Source: an uncultured Armatimonadetes bacterium
GTDB lineage: Bacteria; Armatimonadota; UBA5829; DTJY01
NCBI GenBank assembly: GCA_963717145.1
Contig: OY970325.1
Coordinates: 3,616,001-3,680,000 of the forward strand
Direction of reading: 5' to 3'
DNA length: 64,000 nucleotides
Shown: positions 211-31,897 of the stretch, piece by piece
Position numbering within the stretch: position 1 is the stretch's first letter
Layout of the letters: the number at the start of each line of letters is the position of its first letter
The notes under the pieces: generated by a model
Databases searched by the model: none
What the model was told of the DNA's origin: nothing
What the model saw: the letters and a program-made list of their open reading frames with translations, nothing else
Program-made: the position numbers and the translations under genes

Positions 211-3200
211 CTAGTTGTACTCGATATTGTACTGAGTGAAGTCAGCGTAGCTCGAGAAGTTGCTCGTTCTGGTCACGAACTGCCTGACCCTCATCTCACC
301 CGTAGCCGAGATGTAGTTGAGCGGACTGGTCGTGTTCCAGGAGACCAGCACGTCGGTCGCGCCAACGGTCCTGCTGTCTATCTGCACCCATGCCGATGTG
401 GTGAAGTTGTACAGGTACAACACCTGGGTCAGCGAGGCAGACAGATGGCTGTCGAAGTTGATCGTCAGCTTGGTAACACTGGTCCGAGGCTCAGCGATCG
501 TCACCGAGCTGTACCAGTCGACCTGGCGAGCCGAACCCACCTTGACCGAGTTGATCCTCAGGTACGAGGCGTCATTGGCGCCGAGGTTCGTCACGCTCCC
601 CGAGCCAATCGATCCTCTGGTGATCGTGATGGCGGTCGGCGCGTAGTCCTTGGTCTGGGGCCCGCTCGGAGGAGTCGTGACCACGTCCGGGGCGCTCTGA
701 GCCGACTCGTTCAGGGCCGCATCATACGCGCTTACGGTGTAGCTGTAAGTGGTATTCGGCGAGCAGGTCGTGTCGGAGTAGCTGGCCGTTGGACTCGTTC
801 CGACCTGGGCGCTGTCCCGGAATACCTTGTAGCCGGTCACTCCGACGTTGTCGGTCGAGGCGGTCCAAGTCAGGTCGACGCGGGTGCCTGAGATCGCCGT
901 CGCGTTCAGGTTCGTCGGCACGGTGGGAGCCTCTGTATCCGGCCCACCGCTGACCTGGAAGAACCTGGCGGCATCGGCCATGACTACCAGACTCGCCTCA
1001 CCGGTGGCATTCCCGACCTTGAGGTAGCCCGCTGTACCCGTCAGGAACGACTTGTTGCTGACCAGTACATGCCATGCCCCGCCACCGGACTGCTGGTTCA
1101 TGTTGACCTGCTGACTTCCACCGTTCCAGTACACGATGTACGGAGCAGCAGTCGTGCGGTTTGCGCCCGCAGGATACCAGCAGGAGACGTCGTAGCCGCC
1201 GGCCTCCTCGATGTTCGGACGCCATATCGCTGTGCCGGTCTCAGAGACCTGGGTACCGATGAAGCGGTAGTCGGCACCGTACTTGTCGACCGACGAAGTA
1301 CCCGTCGACCATGAGCCGGTGAAGGTCGCCTGCGGGTTGTCGATGATGAAGTCGGTGATCGCGGGAGTCGTCGCCTGAACAGGGGCACACTGTGCGCTCT
1401 CGTTCAGGGCGGCGTCGTATGCGCTCACCGCGTAGCTGTAGGTGGTGTTCGACGCGCAGGTCGTATCGGAGTATGAGGTGTTCGTCGTCGAGTTCAGATA
1501 TCCACCATTGCGGAAGACCTTGTAGCCGGCGACGCCAAAGTTGTCGGTCGAGGCGGTCCAGCTCAGGTTGATCTGGTTCGGTGAGACGGGTGTTGCAGAC
1601 AGGTTCGTCGGTACGGTCGGAGCCTCGGTATCAGGCGCGCCGCCGACCTGGATGCTCTTGGTCACGGTTGCGCCGAACCAGGTTACGCCGTCACGGACCA
1701 TCTGCCAGTCGGTGATGTACGGCCCTTCCACGCTCGGAGCTGTCAGGTTGAATGTGAAGGTGTAAGTCCCGCCCGGGTTGACCTCGCCTGATATCGTGTG
1801 GCGGGTCGTACCCGTGAACGGATCGGAGTCGCCGACCGCGCCGAGTCTGAACGACTTGGCCTCATTCCAGAGAACGCCTCGGTCGCGCAGGGTAATGCTC
1901 ACCTGTCGGACCTCGCTGGGGGCCATCGTCGCCGGGATGGTGTCGCTGACGTACTCGGACGAGTAGAAGCCCCACGTCGGGGTCGTCCCGAAGTACGTGC
2001 AGATGCCTCTGTAGATCCCCCACATCGCGCCGGAGGTCCAGAAGTGGTCCTTCATCTTGACCGCATCCAGGTCGCAGCTATCGTGGAAGCCAAGCTCGAT
2101 CAGGATGGCGGCCCGGTCCGGGATTCGTATCTCGCCATATGCGCCGTTCGAGTCATGCCGACCCCGATCTACCCAACCCGAGTCTCCGACCTCGTTCCTG
2201 ATGGCATTGATGAGGCTTGGGTGGACGGCGTTGGCAAGGTCGGAGCTGACTGTACACCACGCATTGTGCTCGGCAACACAGTCATAGTACGTGTCAGTGC
2301 CTGTCGGGCAGCTTCCGCCGTAGCAGTTGCCGGCCGAGCCATTCGTGTGCAGCGAGATGTAGATGTTCGTGTTGTCGTAGTCGGATGCGAGCGGCCTCGC
2401 ACGAATGTCGTCGCTTGATTCGCTGGCGCCATCACCGAGCGAACAGCCGCTATAGCTGCCGTAGACTGAACACGGATAGCCGACATTCTGCAGCCAGTAC
2501 GGGGAAGCCATCTTCCACCAGTCAAAGCCCAGGTACTGGCCAAAACCCTTGTCATGGCAGCGGACCTTCTTGACCAGCATACCGTCCGCCTCGAGGAACG
2601 ATGTGAGGTAGAGGGCGTGGTCGAGGTTGTGCAGGTCCTCTTCGCTGAGGGGCGCGCAGTAGACCGGCCGCTGGGTATACCACCCGCTGCCGTTCCAGAA
2701 GATGCCGTGGCCCGGCGACAGCGTGATGCTGCGACCCGAGAGCGAATCCGTACCGATGAGTCCATCCTCCGCCTTCACTCCATGAGGCTCGATGAACGGT
2801 GTCGGCTTCAGGAAGGTGGCGAGCGGCTCTCCCTCGACCAGGATGCGCAGGTCGATCTCGATGCCATAGTAATACAGTGTCCACTTCACCTGATTGAAGA
2901 TCGCCTCGATCCGCATTTCGTCCAGGCCGGACGATGTCAGCCTTCCTGAGAAGTTGACGATGTAGGTGTTGCCCTCGAGGCTCGTGTCGAGGACTACCGT
3001 GCCCCTGGGCACGGCGGACGAAAGACCGAGTGTCGCAAGCAGGCGCGACGGGCCTCCTGCAAGGGCATTGAGCGCCGAAACGGCGTCGGTTACAGCCGGG
3101 TTGTCAATCACAGTGACCTTTCCGAACTGATCGAGGTAACCTACGGGACCGGCGTGAGCTACTGTGGCGAGGAGAAGCAGACCCAGTAGCAGAGGCGCGA

Positions 3201-3228
3201 GACGGGGCGAAAGACGTATGCCTTTCAT
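211..3228 (-). CDS. Secreted modular N-acetylmuramoyl-L-alanine amidase: GerMN + Amidase_3 + NBR1-Ig-like + FN3 + golvesin-C-like + FN3 + C-terminal beta domain
   Basis: Signal peptide; GerMN-like N-terminus; amidase motifs LSPGHG, EEDLHN, ISLHTN, LIELGF; two FN3 repeats (DTEAPTVPTNL...WTASTDNxGVxGYKVFR); IIDN...MADAARF domain. Confidence 0.85.
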   Translation of the reverse strand: MKGIRLSPRLAPLLLGLLLLATVAHAGPVGYLDQFGKVTVIDNPAVTDAVSALNALAGGPSRLLATLGLSSAVPRGTVVLDTSLEGNTYIVNFSGRLTSSGLDEMRIEAIFNQVKWTLYYYGIEIDLRILVEGEPLATFLKPTPFIEPHGVKAEDGLIGTDSLSGRSITLSPGHGIFWNGSGWYTQRPVYCAPLSEEDLHNLDHALYLTSFLEADGMLVKKVRCHDKGFGQYLGFDWWKMASPYWLQNVGYPCSVYGSYSGCSLGDGASESSDDIRARPLASDYDNTNIYISLHTNGSAGNCYGGSCPTGTDTYYDCVAEHNAWCTVSSDLANAVHPSLINAIRNEVGDSGWVDRGRHDSNGAYGEIRIPDRAAILIELGFHDSCDLDAVKMKDHFWTSGAMWGIYRGICTYFGTTPTWGFYSSEYVSDTIPATMAPSEVRQVSITLRDRGVLWNEAKSFRLGAVGDSDPFTGTTRHTISGEVNPGGTYTFTFNLTAPSVEGPYITDWQMVRDGVTWFGATVTKSIQVGGAPDTEAPTVPTNLSATPVSPNQINLSWTASTDNFGVAGYKVFRNGGYLNSTTNTSYSDTTCASNTTYSYAVSAYDAALNESAQCAPVQATTPAITDFIIDNPQATFTGSWSTGTSSVDKYGADYRFIGTQVSETGTAIWRPNIEEAGGYDVSCWYPAGANRTTAAPYIVYWNGGSQQVNMNQQSGGGAWHVLVSNKSFLTGTAGYLKVGNATGEASLVVMADAARFFQVSGGPDTEAPTVPTNLNATAISGTRVDLTWTASTDNVGVTGYKVFRDSAQVGTSPTASYSDTTCSPNTTYSYTVSAYDAALNESAQSAPDVVTTPPSGPQTKDYAPTAITITRGSIGSGSVTNLGANDASYLRINSVKVGSARQVDWYSSVTIAEPRTSVTKLTINFDSHLSASLTQVLYLYNFTTSAWVQIDSRTVGATDVLVSWNTTSPLNYISATGEMRVRQFVTRTSNFSSYADFTQYNIEYN

Positions 3229-3347
3229 AAAGAATCCCTCCCATGAGATTTATCCACGCGGGCTTCAGGTGATCGCTGGTGGCCTTGGGAGAGCAATCGC
3301 GCTTTTTTGGTGGGAAACGATCCGTCTGATAGAAGCCTAGTGGCGTT
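3229..3347 (-). ncRNA. Candidate structured cis-regulatory 5' leader, copy 1
   Basis: Lies between sigma70 promoter and start codon; core GAUCGU...UCCCAAGGCCACCAGCGAUC (3271-3322) shared with copy 2; outer stem GGCUUC/GAAGCC. Confidence 0.5.
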
Positions 3348-3353
3348 GCGTCG

Positions 3354-3382
3354 AGTATATCAGAGGCACAGGCATCTGTAAA
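3354..3382 (-). promoter_or_regulatory. sigma70-type promoter of amidase 1
   Basis: TTTACA-N17-TATACT with TGn extended -10. Confidence 0.7.
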
Positions 3383-3422
3383 GAAGAAATTTGGCGGTGT
3401 TACCTTCGGCGGTAGAAGAGTA

Positions 3423-3448
3423 AGGGCCGGCTGGGATCAGCCGGCCCT
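3423..3448 (-). terminator. Hairpin terminator downstream of amidase 2
   Basis: Perfect 11-bp stem AGGGCCGGCTG-GGAT-CAGCCGGCCCT followed by a pyrimidine-rich tail on minus strand. Confidence 0.6.
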
Positions 3449-3483
3449 CTATCAACTTGCCCTCTGGTTTGAGGTCTATCGTC

Positions 3484-3581
3484 GATGCATCGGCAGCCAA
3501 GCCTCACGAGGCCGCCGATGCATCACACGTGTCGCTTGCCGATGCTTCGGCAGCAGAGCCTCGCGGCGCTGCCGATGCATC
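3484..3581. repeat. Two 41-nt REP-like hairpins GATGCwTCGGC...GCCGATGCATC (third copy at 48319-48359)
   Basis: Hairpins at 3484-3524 and 3541-3581; same length and similar arms as 48319-48359. Confidence 0.7.
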
Positions 3582-3592
3582 ACAGGCCTCGC

Positions 3593-5574
3593 TTACGGCT
3601 TGTACCACCTGATGGCGTCGGCCATGACGTTCTTGCCGGTGGTGGTCCAGCAGGAGAGCTTGACCTGGTTGCTGCCGGCAAGCATGCTCTGGGTGGTGAG
3701 CAAGTTCCAGTGCCCACCGTTGGTCTGCTGATTCACGCTGACGGTCTGTGTACCGCCGTTGTAGTAGACGATGTACGGAGCAGTCAGGGACCGGTTCGAT
3801 CCCTGAGGCCACCATGCGTGGACCTGGTATGCCCCCGCGCTCGGCAGACTGACTGCCCATGTTGCCGAATCGCTTGTCGCGGCGGTGCTCCTGTACCGGT
3901 AGTTCGAGCCGTACTTGTCCGTCGACGAGGTGCCGGTGAGCCAACTCGCCGAAGCGGTGAAGCCGGCCTGGGCGTTGTCCAGGATGACCTCGACCGGCCC
4001 GGTTCCTCCGACGACGATGGGCTGCGAGACGCTCGCGCCGAACCACGTCACCCCATCACGGACCATCTGCCAGTCGGTAGTGTACGTGCCCGGGGTCGTC
4101 GGGGCGGTCAGGGTGAAGTTGAACGTGTACTGACCGCTCGGCTCGACCTCGCCGGAGATCGTATGGCGAGTCGTGCCGGTGAACGGATCGGAATCACCGA
4201 CCGCTCCGAGCCTGTACGACCTTGCCTCCGACCAGAGAACGCCTCTGTTCCTCATCGTGACGCTGACCGATCGGACCTCGCCCGCGTTCATCGTGGACGG
4301 AATGGTGTGGCTGACTACCTCGGACGAGTAGAAGCCCCATACCGGGCTGGTGCCGAAGTAGGTGCAGATACCGGTGTACATGCCGTACATCGCCACTGAC
4401 TTGAACCAGTTGTCGCGGAAGTAGACGGCATCCTTCTCGCAGGTGTCATGGAAGCCGAGTTCCATCAGGATAGCGGCTCTGTCGGGGATGCGGATCTCGC
4501 CGTATGCTCCGTTGGAGTTGTGCTTGCCGCGATCTGTCCAACTACCATCGTAGTTGTTCCGGATGGCGTTGATGACTGCGGGATGAACCGCATTCGCCAG
4601 GTTTGTGCTGACGGTGCACCAGGAAGCATGCTCCGTGCCGCAGTCATAGTAGGTGTCCGTGCCGGTCGGGCAGCCACCGCCGTAGCAGTCGCCTGAGAGG
4701 CCGTTGGTGTGCAGCGAGATGTAGATGTTCGTGTTGTTGTAGTCCGCAGCAAGGGGCCTGGAGCGGATGTCATCGTTGATCTCGCTTGCACCGCTGCCGA
4801 GGGTGCGCGCCGGTCGAGCTGCCATACACAGAGCTTGGATAGCCCTGGTTCTGAAGCCAGTAGCACGCAGCCATCTCCCACCAGGGGTGGCCGGTCGAGT
4901 GGTTGCCCTGATTGAGGTTAGTGCAGCGGACCATCTGGACGCTCGCCGAGTCAGCCAGAAGGTGCTTCTCCAGATAGCGGATCATCTGAAGGTTGTGCAT
5001 GTCCTCCTGGTTCAGAGGCGCGCAGTAGACAGGTCGCTGGGTATACCGAGCCGCTGCCGTTCCAGAACCAGCCGTGTCCGGGCGACAGGGTGATGCTTCT
5101 GCCGCTGAGACTCGAGATGCTGCCCCCGCCATCCTCCGTAGCGCTTTTCGGTACGACATTCGGAGTCGGCGGCAGGAAGTCGGATAGCGGAGTGCCGTCA
5201 ACCAGGATACTGATGTCCACTTCGATGCCGTAGTACCACAGAGTGTACTTGACCTGCTCGAAGATGGCCGAGACCCTGGCTTCATCCAGACCCGCCGTCA
5301 GGCGGCTGGTGAAGTTCACGATAGCGGTGTTGTCCTCTATCGCGAAGTCGATGACTTTGGTACCCCTCGGCACCGCCGAAGTCAGCCCCAACGCGGAAAG
5401 AGTCCGCTGCGGACCTCCGGCGAGAGCATTGAGCGCCGATAACGCGTCCGTCACTGCCGGATTGTCGATAACGACGCCCTTCCCGAACTGGTCCAGATAG
5501 ACCACGGGACCGGCGCAGGCTGCTGTGGCGATAAGCAAGCAGCCCAGGAGCACGAGCAGAAGAGTGCCTTTCAC
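3593..5574 (-). CDS. Second GerMN-amidase paralog (GerMN + Amidase_3 + NBR1-Ig-like + golvesin-C-like, no FN3); two apparent frameshifts (~5050, ~4810)
   Basis: ORFs 4951-5574, 4770-5285 and 3593-4825 join into a protein collinear with 211-3228 (GPVVYLDQFGK, YTQRPVYCAPL, ISLHTNG, LMELGFHD). Confidence 0.8.
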
Positions 5575-5701
5575 TTACATCCCTCCCATGTTTATTGTCG
5601 CTCGACGGCTTGGGGACGATCGCTGGTGGCCATGGGATTTCTCGGATGCAACCCGATTCGTTGTGGAAAACGATCTACTTTGGGCTCTGCGAGCAACTGC
5701 T
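5575..5701 (-). ncRNA. Candidate structured cis-regulatory 5' leader, copy 2
   Basis: Core GAUCGU...UCCCAUGGCCACCAGCGAUC (5618-5675); outer stem GUUGCUCG/CGAGCGAC; same position relative to promoter and RBS as copy 1. Confidence 0.5.
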
Positions 5702-5707
5702 GCGACG

Positions 5708-5736
5708 ATTCTATACCAGCGATTGCCCGCTGTCAA
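5708..5736 (-). promoter_or_regulatory. sigma70-type promoter of amidase 2
   Basis: TTGACA-N17-TAGAAT. Confidence 0.75.
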
Positions 5737-5759
5737 CAAGTTTTTTGGGAGCGGCTACT

Positions 5760-5829
5760 GTAGGGGCGAAGCATTGGCCACGCATATCCGAGCAACCTTG
5801 CGTCCGTTGGGCGAATGCTTCGCCCCTAC
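5760..5829. repeat. GTAG-type REP doublet
   Basis: 16-bp inverted repeat GTAGGGGCGAAGCATT...AATGCTTCGCCCCTAC; same arms at 46246-46362. Confidence 0.8.
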
Positions 5830-5912
5830 TCCGATGATGTTGGCGCCCAAAGGAAGGAACACGCCGTAACGGTATCAAATAAGATAGTAATGCGTTACTC
5901 GGAGGTGCCGGC

Positions 5913-7802
5913 GTGCGTTTACTTGTGATTCTGGCGGTATTGGCTGTCATAGCGTGCAGAGCCGATGCTGCGAAACTCGAGATCGTTGCTGACGGGAAGT
6001 CTGATTACTCGATCATCATCCCTTCGAATCCATCTCCCGCCGAGGAGTTGGCGGCGAGTGAGCTGTCGAAGTATCTGGAGCAGATGTCCGGGGCGAAGCT
6101 CCCCGTGTCGAAGCGATCGTCGAAGTTCCCCCCCAGGCATGCCATCGTTATCGGAAGTGTCGACTCCTTCCCCGAGGGACTGCCGCTGATCCGTGGCGGC
6201 AACAATGACAGCGACTGCTTCGGGATCGGCATCGGCGATGAGCGCCTGGATATCGTCGGCGTCCGGGACCGGGCCACTCTGAACGCGGTGTACGAATTCC
6301 TGCGGCTGCTCGGATGCCGTTGGCTCGCGCCGAAGTTCGATCACTACAAGGGCACAGCAGAGTTCGTCCCGTCGAAACCGACGATCGTGTATCAGGCCGA
6401 CGAAGACTACCTCCATGATCCGCAGTTCAAGATTCGCAAGCTCTACGTCGAGGAGGGCCACTCCCACAACGCCGAGAACCTGGCTCAGCTCGTCGAGTGG
6501 ATGCCCAAGGCGCGGTACAATATGCTGGTAATCCCGATGAACTATCAGGGCGGAGACCGCGTGAAGTGGGACAACTGGCGCGAGAAGGTCGCGCCCGAGC
6601 TTCAGAAGCGCGACATCACGATCGAGGTCGGCGGTCACGGCTACCAGAACTTCCTGAACGCCGAGATGGAGGATGGAAAGCTCTTCGACAAGCATCCCGA
6701 GTGGTTCGGCATGGATGACAAGGGCGAGCGGGTGAAGTCCCACGGCCGGGTGATCTGCACCTCCAACCCCGAGCCTGTGGCATATCTGACGGCCAACTTC
6801 ATCGGGTATCTGAAGGAACGGCCCGAGATCCAGGTCTTCGCTCTCTGGCCGCCGGATGGAGGAACCTGGTGCGAATGTGACAAGTGCCTCCCGATGGGCA
6901 CTCCGGCGAACCGTCAGTCGATCCTCCTATCGCAGGTGAAGGCCGAGGTGTCCAAGGTCCGGCCGGATGTGCGGCTCGAGACGATCGCCTACCACAGGAC
7001 GATCGCGCCGCCGGAGTCGTTCCCGATGGACAAGGACACTCTGATCGACATCTGCCCGATCGCTCAGTGCTTCGAGTACCAGATCTACGACGACCGTTCC
7101 GACGTGAACGCGGGATACGTCAGCAATATCAGAGCCTGGCGAAAGGCATTCGAGGGCGACATCAGCATCTATTCCTACTACCGCAAGTACGCATGGAAGT
7201 CGCTGCCGGTCGTCTTCCCACAGTACATTCAGAAGGACCTTATCTTCTACGACGACGAGGGAGTTCACGGCATTTCCTCCTACGCTGAGCCGGGCGACTG
7301 GTTCACCTACGAGTTGAACCACTACTGCCTCTCGCGCCTGGCGGAGGACCCGAAGCAGAACGTCAATCGGCTCATCGGCGAGTTCTGCGAGGCCCGATAC
7401 GGCGAATCGAGCGGTGTGATCGCCGGAGTCCTGCTCGATCTCGGCAACATCACACGGCGGTACTGCAGCATCCCGGGGACATCGCTGAAATCCGCGGTTG
7501 AGATCGCCGAACAGCAGGGGAAGGCCGCGCAGCTCGCGGAGTCGGTCAAGGCCGAGATCGGTCGGACGAAGGACGCGGACGCATCATTCAACCTGAACCG
7601 CCTGCTCCTGATGATCGAGTACGCGCAGAGGGACCTGGAGATCCAGCACAATCGCGCATCGAAGGCTCCGGTCGAAGAGACGAAGAAGCTGATCGCCGAT
7701 CTGTCCGCCTTCCTCGAGAAGCACAAGGACGACGGCGTGTTCGTCTTCCACGCCCGGACCGAGATACCACGCCTCGGAGCCGGCTACGGAATCAAAGAAT
7801 AG
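5913..7802 (+). CDS. Secreted DUF4838-family protein (putative glycoside hydrolase-like)
   Basis: Signal peptide; AASELSKYLEQMSGAKLP, GCRW, HPEWF, CxCxxC, YYRKY; GGAGG RBS; paralog at 46480. Confidence 0.75.
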   Translation: MRLLVILAVLAVIACRADAAKLEIVADGKSDYSIIIPSNPSPAEELAASELSKYLEQMSGAKLPVSKRSSKFPPRHAIVIGSVDSFPEGLPLIRGGNNDSDCFGIGIGDERLDIVGVRDRATLNAVYEFLRLLGCRWLAPKFDHYKGTAEFVPSKPTIVYQADEDYLHDPQFKIRKLYVEEGHSHNAENLAQLVEWMPKARYNMLVIPMNYQGGDRVKWDNWREKVAPELQKRDITIEVGGHGYQNFLNAEMEDGKLFDKHPEWFGMDDKGERVKSHGRVICTSNPEPVAYLTANFIGYLKERPEIQVFALWPPDGGTWCECDKCLPMGTPANRQSILLSQVKAEVSKVRPDVRLETIAYHRTIAPPESFPMDKDTLIDICPIAQCFEYQIYDDRSDVNAGYVSNIRAWRKAFEGDISIYSYYRKYAWKSLPVVFPQYIQKDLIFYDDEGVHGISSYAEPGDWFTYELNHYCLSRLAEDPKQNVNRLIGEFCEARYGESSGVIAGVLLDLGNITRRYCSIPGTSLKSAVEIAEQQGKAAQLAESVKAEIGRTKDADASFNLNRLLLMIEYAQRDLEIQHNRASKAPVEETKKLIADLSAFLEKHKDDGVFVFHARTEIPRLGAGYGIKE

Positions 7803-31822: not shown

Positions 31823-31897
31823 GGGCGGTTAGTTCAGGGGGAGAACGCCTCGTTGACACCGAGGAGGTCAGTGGTTCAAATCCACTATCGCCCACCA
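31823..31897 (+). tRNA. tRNA-Val(GAC)
   Basis: Acceptor GGGCGGT/ATCGCCC, D arm GTTC/GAAC, anticodon arm CCTCG-TTGACAC-CGAGG, T loop TTCAAAT, encoded CCA. Confidence 0.95.

Follow-up and report, generated by a model that had tools for sequence, protein, structure and literature searches.

The subject of this study is the 5′ leader shared by two paralogous peptidoglycan amidase genes, which lie in a 64,000-nucleotide (nt) stretch of the genome of an uncultured Armatimonadetes bacterium (contig OY970325.1, positions 3,616,001 to 3,680,000; this whole stretch is called the window hereafter, and the source genome is a single 5.37-Mb contig). It is rather probable that these leaders are functional cis-regulatory elements acting on translation initiation. 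The best reading of the data is that of a lineage-restricted cis-regulatory RNA, which would toggle between a long hairpin and an alternative fold hiding the Shine-Dalgarno (SD) sequence. In one subfamily of secreted GerMN-Amidase_3 peptidoglycan amidase genes, this RNA would account for the whole 5′ leader (about 105-135 nt). In window coordinates, the two genes and their predicted promoters are as follows.

211-3228, minus strand: amidase 1, intact, 1005 amino acids (aa), secreted, with Germane (GerMN), Amidase_3, Ig-like, Golvesin_C and fn3 domains
3354-3382, minus strand: amidase 1 promoter, -35 TTTACA (3382-3377), 17-nt spacer, -10 TATACT (3359-3354), 10 of 12 consensus matches
3593-5574, minus strand: amidase 2, a GerMN-Amidase_3-Golvesin_C paralog split over three reading frames
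5708-5736, minus strand: amidase 2 promoter, -35 TTGACA (5736-5731), 17-nt spacer, -10 TAGAAT (5713-5708), 11 of 12 consensus matches

The N-terminal architecture is common to both proteins, and amidase 2 carries two frameshifts relative to an intact 663-aa ortholog in genome G001. An earlier inspection of the same DNA (the original prediction) had assigned a sigma70-type promoter to each paralog. Both were recovered at these positions by a consensus scan, whose two promoter-like sites in this region compare with 0.8 expected by shuffling, and a leader of about 120-128 nt separates promoter and start codon in each case. The core pattern GATCGTTTYCCAC-N(10-40)-TCCCAWGGCCACCAGCGATC occurs exactly twice in the window (3271-3322 and 5618-5675) and in none of 100 shuffles, in agreement with the conserved core that had been claimed for the two leaders. 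The inner hairpins, the A-rich linker and the CAUGGGAGGGAU ribosome-binding region described at the same time were likewise all found in the sequence of both.

Conservation of the motif extends beyond this duplicated pair. The exact core pattern has a third occurrence in the source genome and is also present in three genomes of the same family that belong to other genera. A covariance model built from six copies (R1) identified 14 copies in 4 of 151 related genomes, with matches in 3 of the 10 other genomes of the family, in none of 42 other genomes of the class and in none of 98 further genomes of the phylum. A pattern scan of metagenomes returned nine stretches, seven of them true matches, four with new distinct leader sequences; the stretch L039 is identical to the G001 copy and L044 shares its leader with L038. 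Of the metagenome stretches, L036 and L037 received no model score and L040 only 13.1 bits. The same kind of scan over 185,579 species genomes gave seven stretches, of which the model scored only L029, on the same contig as the G001 copy; the remaining six, in unrelated phyla, match by chance. The pattern used required the SD, so that copies with another expression platform were outside its reach. Altogether, 18 distinct copies are available, five from the source genome and nine from three other genomes of the family, which makes 4 of 11 family genomes, and four from distinct metagenome contigs. A second model, built from all 18 (R2), recovered each of them with 73.9-101.2 bits.

The position of the motif is constant. 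At all 20 loci examined, the model match ends at the start codon of an open reading frame (ORF) that begins with MK, followed by a signal peptide and a GerMN N-terminus, and every copy precedes a GerMN-Amidase_3 paralog. On the other side, all 18 distinct copies are preceded, at a distance of a few bases, by a -35/-10 pair, the -35 box being TTGAC in 17 of them and TTTAC in leader 1, with a -10-like hexamer downstream. With the promoter just before the motif and the start codon at its end, the motif is the entire predicted leader, which fits a predicted transcription start upstream of the motif.

When the 18 copies are compared, the leader folds as a long irregular hairpin composed of a basal helix P1a, a variable helix P1b, a helix P2, an optional helix P3 and a large apical loop. 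P1a, with the consensus (U/C)GCUCG / CGAGC(G/A), begins 5-8 nt from the predicted 5′ end. P1b differs by lineage, with GGCUUC/GAAGCC in leader 1 and GUACC/GGUAC, CGGCA/UGCCG or UCCAC/GUGGA elsewhere. The outer stems proposed earlier, GGCUUC/GAAGCC and GUUGCUCG/CGAGCGAC, are both present; what had been taken for one outer stem is really a two-part structure, made of P1a and the variable P1b. P2 (GAUCGUU / AGCGAUC) is nearly invariant. The apical loop starts with a pyrimidine run, may carry the variable hairpin P3 and ends with (GCAUCC)...UCCCAWGGCCACCA. Within this end, the 8-nt loop sequence GGCCACCA stands out, since its GGCCACC part is invariant and the next A nearly so in the 18 copies. In the two leaders of the window, these elements are placed as follows, R2 being the model defined above and anti-SD the loop segment complementary to the SD region.

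3229-3350, minus strand: leader 1, whole motif, R2 match of 85.7 bits, followed by the ATG at 3228-3226
3343-3340 / 3257-3254, minus strand: leader 1 P1a, CCAC / GUGG
3337-3332 / 3266-3261, minus strand: leader 1 P1b, GGCUUC / GAAGCC
3322-3316 / 3277-3271, minus strand: leader 1 P2, GAUCGUU / AGCGAUC
3293-3286 and 3243-3236, minus strand: leader 1 anti-SD CUCUCCCA and SD UGGGAGGG
3284-3277, minus strand: leader 1 invariant loop GGCCACCA
5575-5702, minus strand: leader 2, whole motif, R2 match of 95.8 bits, followed by the GTG at 5574-5572
5697-5690 / 5604-5597, minus strand: leader 2 P1a, GUUGCUCG / CGAGCGAC
5675-5669 / 5624-5618, minus strand: leader 2 P2, GAUCGUU / AGCGAUC
5656-5651 / 5647-5642, minus strand: leader 2 P3, UCGGGU / AUCCGA
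5649-5644 and 5637-5631, minus strand: leader 2 anti-SD, GCAUCC and UCCCAUG
5631-5624, minus strand: leader 2 invariant loop GGCCACCA
5590-5577, minus strand: leader 2 SD region, CAUGGGAGGGAUGU

Covariation supports this fold. It was evaluated on two alignments, one made with MAFFT and fitted to no structure (A6), the other with Infernal (A7). On A6, 86.0% of the cells are paired, compared with 32.8-47.8% when the partners are slid by 1-3 columns, changes on both sides are seen at 9 pairs against 3.9 in shuffles, and the covariation score is reached by none of 500 shuffles. On A7, 84.4% of the cells are paired and the two-sided changes rise to 13 pairs, against 6.1 in shuffles. In P1, such changes affect 6 of 7 pairs, for example G-C to A-U at pair 10/108. 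The variation of P2 is of the wobble type only, with U-G in 11 copies and U-A in 5 at pair 35/85, and A-U in 13 and G-U in 5 at pair 31/89. Since these wobble changes would break the pairing on the opposite strand, the structure can be assigned to the mRNA strand. The leader thus combines a conserved structured domain, in which stems covary, with unpaired nucleotides that are also conserved, a combination generic to riboswitches.

The same observations bear on the possibility that the conserved sequence is not an RNA element at all. GATCG / CGATC is an inverted repeat at the DNA level too, so that an operator of the form GATCGTT...AGCGATC might be considered. Yet its arms are separated by a variable distance (41-58 nt), pairing is maintained by G-U wobbles, which are mismatches in DNA and in the other strand, and P1 covaries. 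It might also be imagined that a short leader peptide starts at the AUG in CCCAUGGCC, and in leader 2 this AUG opens a 13-codon frame that ends just before the SD. The internal AUG is however found in only 9 of the 18 copies, the others having AAG, ACG or GAG, and the frames and their lengths differ. An upstream-ORF attenuator was rejected on these grounds, and a DNA operator or leader peptide appears altogether very improbable as an explanation of the motif.

The leader is also under purifying selection. Four ortholog pairs of the congeneric genomes G005 and G010 were compared. Leader identity amounts to 443/453 positions (97.8%), to be set beside 97-99.7% at first and second codon positions, 86-91% at third codon positions and 366/403 (90.8%) in the 100 nt upstream. 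The leader therefore evolves about as slowly as non-synonymous positions. Its history was examined on a maximum-likelihood tree of 34 amidase N-terminal regions, from which L017 was dropped, its match being too short. Among 30 amidase loci of the family, 11 have a strong match, one a weak match and 18 none, two of these 18 being not judgeable (L059, at a contig edge, and L079, a partial match). In the tree, 13 motif-less genes form one supported clade (98/94), and the leader-bearing genes form a deep grade with few losses, spanning deep paralog splits with branch lengths of 0.2-0.66. Hence, the leader is old relative to the paralog splits and can be lost. Three further paralogs of the source genome have unrelated leaders.

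As a separate observation, three motif-less paralogs (G000:1947865(-), 3987112(-) and 5000650(+)) carry an AT-rich palindrome, CTGG(T/C)AAT(A/T)ATACC(A/T)G, 15-35 nt upstream of the -35 box. About 20 other sites of this kind occur in G000, and the palindrome precedes TTGAC boxes at other loci. It is likely an operator of a global transcription factor, and its presence at the motif-less paralogs suggests that the two groups of paralogs are regulated differently.

The second part of the argument concerns the SD. The site UGGGAGGGAU, with the unusual ribosome-binding sequence GGGAGGG, is a conserved part of the motif and not the general site of the source genome; GGGAGGGAT has only 50 occurrences in the 5.37 Mb, four of them in motif leaders. 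An RNAalifold consensus of the first six copies contains a two-part helix, formed by the loop (GCAUCC, UCCCAUG) with CAUGGGA.GGAUGC, which crosses P1 and P2. Compensatory changes are seen in this loop:SD helix: in two copies A-U is replaced by G-C (CCCA/UGGG to CCCG/CGGG), and in four others or the same copies U-A by A-U. As a control, mononucleotide shuffles of the loop were paired with the SD region, with a cut-off of 5%; the natural pairing is matched by at most 5% of the shuffles in 12 of the 18 copies. The complementarity between UCCCA/UGGGA and the ribosome-binding site that had been noticed earlier is indeed present in both leaders of the window, with unequal weight. In leader 2, the loop:SD pairing reaches -20.3 kcal/mol and is equalled by 0.7% of shuffles, and in leader 1 the CUCUCCCA/UGGGAGGG pairing reaches -14.5 kcal/mol and is equalled by 12% of composition-matched shuffles.

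The hairpin and the loop:SD fold are close in energy. In 6 of the 8 copies allowing all 13 forced loop:SD pairs, the fold made of P1 and P2 is within 3.5 kcal/mol of the loop:SD fold. The minimum-free-energy fold is the sequestered one in leader 2, and the hairpin with a small local SD hairpin in leader 1. Because the SD is located only about 10 nt past the foot of a stem of roughly 20 bp, the loop:SD helix and P1 would exclude each other; P2 and the loop:SD helix could form together, as an H-type pseudoknot. A distinct complementarity was seen in a sub-lineage comprising L026 and L027 (G010d and G005d) and the metagenome copy L041, linking the extreme 5′ end (UUUGGUAUC, AUUGGUA) to the spacer that separates SD and AUG (GGAUGCCAA, UGCCGAU), with changes on both sides between copies. 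In the structural model, this pairing would be a second way of closing the start region.

Considering these properties, the following mechanism may be envisaged. In a first fold (fold A), the hairpin P1a-P1b-P2-(P3), able to form once transcribed, would leave the A/U-rich linker and the SD UGGGAGGGAU free or weakly paired. In a second fold (fold B), sterically incompatible with P1, the SD region would pair with the loop, in its 3′ half (GCAUCC...UCCCAUG or CUCUCCCA), and ribosome binding would be blocked. Since neither fold needs the invariance of GGCCACCA or the near-invariance of P2, recognition by something else may be supposed. Thus, a trans factor (small molecule, protein or RNA) recognising the invariant loop and P2 would shift the balance and set the level of amidase translation. 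Conservation, purifying selection, covarying helices, strand specificity, constant position and two folds of similar energy were computed here; to these the mechanism adds switching, its direction and an effector, which we infer. Of the translational switch on peptidoglycan hydrolases put forward in the original prediction, what has stood is accordingly a conserved and covarying leader with predicted loop:SD pairing, switching and its trigger keeping the status of inference. Three outcomes that would have spoken against that prediction, namely a match to a known RNA family, restriction of the motif to the duplicated pair and absence of covariation, were examined, and none of them was observed.

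As to the nature of the factor, one tentative possibility is that the leader combines the aptamer and the expression platform of a new riboswitch class, sensing a small molecule linked to cell-wall turnover or to the state of the envelope. The ligand might then be a muropeptide or amino-sugar derivative, a peptidoglycan precursor or a nucleotide second messenger. Its pocket would be formed by the invariant GGCCACCA loop and P2, and binding would decide whether the loop is available for pairing with the SD. An RNA-binding protein blocking or opening the ribosome-binding site is, in our estimation, unlikely. Two sorts of candidates may be named, CsrA acting on two GGA motifs of the SD region, or another protein recognising P2 and GGCCACCA. 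P2 and GGCCACCA are conserved as sequence and not merely as pairing, as is typical of RNA protein operators. GGA motifs are part of the consensus of CsrA sites. Two of them are found in UGGGAGGGAU, and in fold A they sit within the loop of a small hairpin (AUCUC-AUGGGA-GGGAU) or adjacent to it; in several copies, folding under constraint puts AUGGGA inside such a loop. CsrA is encoded in the source genome (80.8 bits) and in 9 of 11 family genomes. The two features expected of a CsrA leader, GGA motifs and a CsrA gene, are therefore both there, but they are not specific. GGA motifs are inherent to any strong SD, and CsrA is too widespread in the family for its co-occurrence to be informative, 9 of 11 genomes having the gene when strong motif matches occur in 4. 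Moreover, CsrA leaves GGCCACCA and P1 unexplained, and no candidate binding protein is encoded beside the motif copies.

Other partners for the conserved sequences were considered and not retained. A segment complementary to GGCCACCA (GGUGG-like, in the 3′ flank, the 5′ end or the early codons) was found by eye in some copies (own3 and own4 of the source genome, meta38 of the metagenomes), without consistency across the set. For an antisense small RNA, the genome contains four non-leader near-matches to GGCCACCAGCGATC, where about two are expected by our estimate. Finally, neither leader contains an intrinsic terminator (a GC-rich hairpin followed by a U tract); an A-rich linker follows P1.

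Several observations weigh against a toggling regulatory RNA and have to be set beside the above. The loop:SD control was not passed by 6 of the 18 copies, namely leader 1 (12%), own3 (5.7%), own4, own5, the G001 copy and meta41, so that in the source genome the pairing is clearly above shuffles in only one of five copies. On A6, P2 has no double compensatory change and may be conserved for sequence rather than for pairing, and GGCCACCA, the most conserved element, is explained by neither helix nor fold. The copies are related, and as their sequences do not constitute independent samples, the shuffle controls make the significance look higher than it is. As all copies precede paralogs or orthologs of a single gene family, they may share one origin and could all descend from one duplicated promoter-leader-gene unit. 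The range is narrow, with strong matches in 4 of 11 genomes of one family. When R2 was run on 151 genomes spread evenly over the phylum, it returned, outside the source genome, one degenerate copy and one false match. The latter (25.2 bits, in G067) falls inside a 344-aa ORF; weak R2 matches in G003, G004 and G007 were discarded as well, the SD region alone being aligned. The degenerate copy lies in G006, upstream of the ortholog of amidase 2, with 23.7 bits and GGCCACCA lost. For amidase 1, the ortholog in G006 lacks the motif and is preceded by a short leader containing a simple GGAGG site, from which it follows that the element can be dispensed with. Lastly, three of the five leader-bearing genes of the source genome are disrupted (amidase 2, own3 and own5).

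Part of these facts would suit a constitutive structural leader, devoid of any switch, that protects the 5′ end or fixes a low level of translation and was inherited through gene duplications. Fixed low translation would be sensible for potentially lytic enzymes. All copies stand before one gene family, with a gene-tree grade consistent with vertical inheritance and losses, the hairpin begins within a few nt of the predicted transcription start, as 5′ stabiliser hairpins do, and the loop:SD pairing is matched by more than 5% of shuffles in the six copies just listed. However, a stabiliser hairpin needs no invariant 8-nt loop, no near-invariant P2 and no conserved unusual SD, and the leader is as conserved as first and second codon positions. 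A loop:SD helix with compensatory changes and two folds of similar energy are also unaccounted for by such a leader, which is regarded as quite improbable.

Further details of the loci may be recorded here. The disrupted leader-bearing genes are those at window 3593-5574 (minus strand), G000:1146627-1149219, G000:1140205 onwards and G010:C29. The own3 gene is split over two frames and own5 stops after 9 codons; the G010d gene is split, its G005 ortholog being open. These genes are either real pseudogenes behind intact leaders or the product of assembly indels. A hairpin resembling a terminator (GGCCGGCTG...CAGCCGGCC) occupies window 3425-3442 on the minus strand, in the interval that separates amidase 2 from the amidase 1 promoter; it fits amidase 1 and amidase 2 being separate transcription units. 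In the same interval, the segment 3474-3587 consists of two tandem 57-nt units, 77% identical. Each forms a hairpin with 13-15-nt arms, based on GATGCATCGGCAGC, and together they have the look of a palindromic repeat element of local origin or extent. Directly upstream of the amidase 2 promoter (5760-5829) is a GTAG-headed palindrome with 20-nt arms (GTAGGGGCGAAGCATTGGCC / GGCGAATGCTTCGCCCCTAC). The divergent neighbour of amidase 2 is a DUF4838 / GH67N-like gene (5913-7802, plus strand). G006 (L045, G006:C78) keeps this neighbour as well as the tandem order of amidase 2 then amidase 1.

The leaders belong to no family known to Rfam, as the original prediction had supposed. Infernal cmscan against the 4227 covariance models of Rfam 15 gave, at gathering scores, a single match in the 64-kb window, a tRNA at 31823-31894. 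With permissive filters and E<=10, six weak matches were obtained in the interval 3150-5950, none of them within 3229-3350 or 5575-5702. The c-di-AMP riboswitch (ydaO, RF00379) gave no match at its gathering score or at E<=10. A full-text search of the literature found no description of such a motif. In their main text, the 26-genome and 50-genome discovery papers (PMC8632094 and PMC11109978) contain none of the words 'amidase', 'Armatimonad', 'Fimbriimonas' and 'Chthonomonas'. The leader RNA would thus represent, as judged from its sequence, a previously undescribed family of a known kind of RNA, found so far in one family of Armatimonadota and before one gene subfamily.

Peptidoglycan amidases can lyse the cell that produces them and hence need tight control. 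To our knowledge, very little is known of this control outside a few model phyla, and we know of almost no experimental genetics in Armatimonadota. With this motif, a cis-regulatory RNA specific to the phylum would be described for the first time. With about 110 nt, a defined hairpin, an invariant 8-nt loop and a predicted anti-SD, the element is compact and directly testable. A small-molecule ligand, should there be one, would indicate a signal reporting the state of the cell wall; if the partner is a protein, the leader would serve as bait to find it. The narrow distribution limits the general importance of this RNA.

It is useful to compare the amidase leader with known systems. The c-di-AMP riboswitch (ydaO/yuaA, RF00379) is often found before cell-wall hydrolase genes (amidases, NlpC/P60, Rpf), and the amidase leader resembles it in this functional association. 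The ydaO motif is, however, a large pseudo-two-fold structure, which the amidase leader does not match even at E<=10, and the conserved sequences differ. Like the orphan riboswitch candidates collected by Weinberg and Breaker, the amidase leader is an intergenic covarying motif with a consistent gene association; it is absent from Rfam 15. With CsrA-repressed leaders, it shares GGA motifs that overlap the SD, including one that a hairpin loop can expose, but CsrA targets have no counterpart of the conserved P1, P2 and GGCCACCA. A further likeness is to the translational riboswitches SAM-II, SAM-V and preQ1-II/III, in which the SD is hidden by pairing with a loop of the aptamer. The amidase leader similarly has covarying stems, an optional variable hairpin, conserved unpaired nucleotides and a predicted loop-SD pairing. 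It differs from them in matching no Rfam family and in spanning one bacterial family and one gene family, whereas validated riboswitch classes are usually broader in distribution. It also differs from a ligand-locked pseudoknot, since the P1-P2 stem probably excludes the loop:SD helix, so that the two would be alternatives. As no terminator is present, control by the amidase leader would act on translation, as it does in the riboswitches that sequester the SD.

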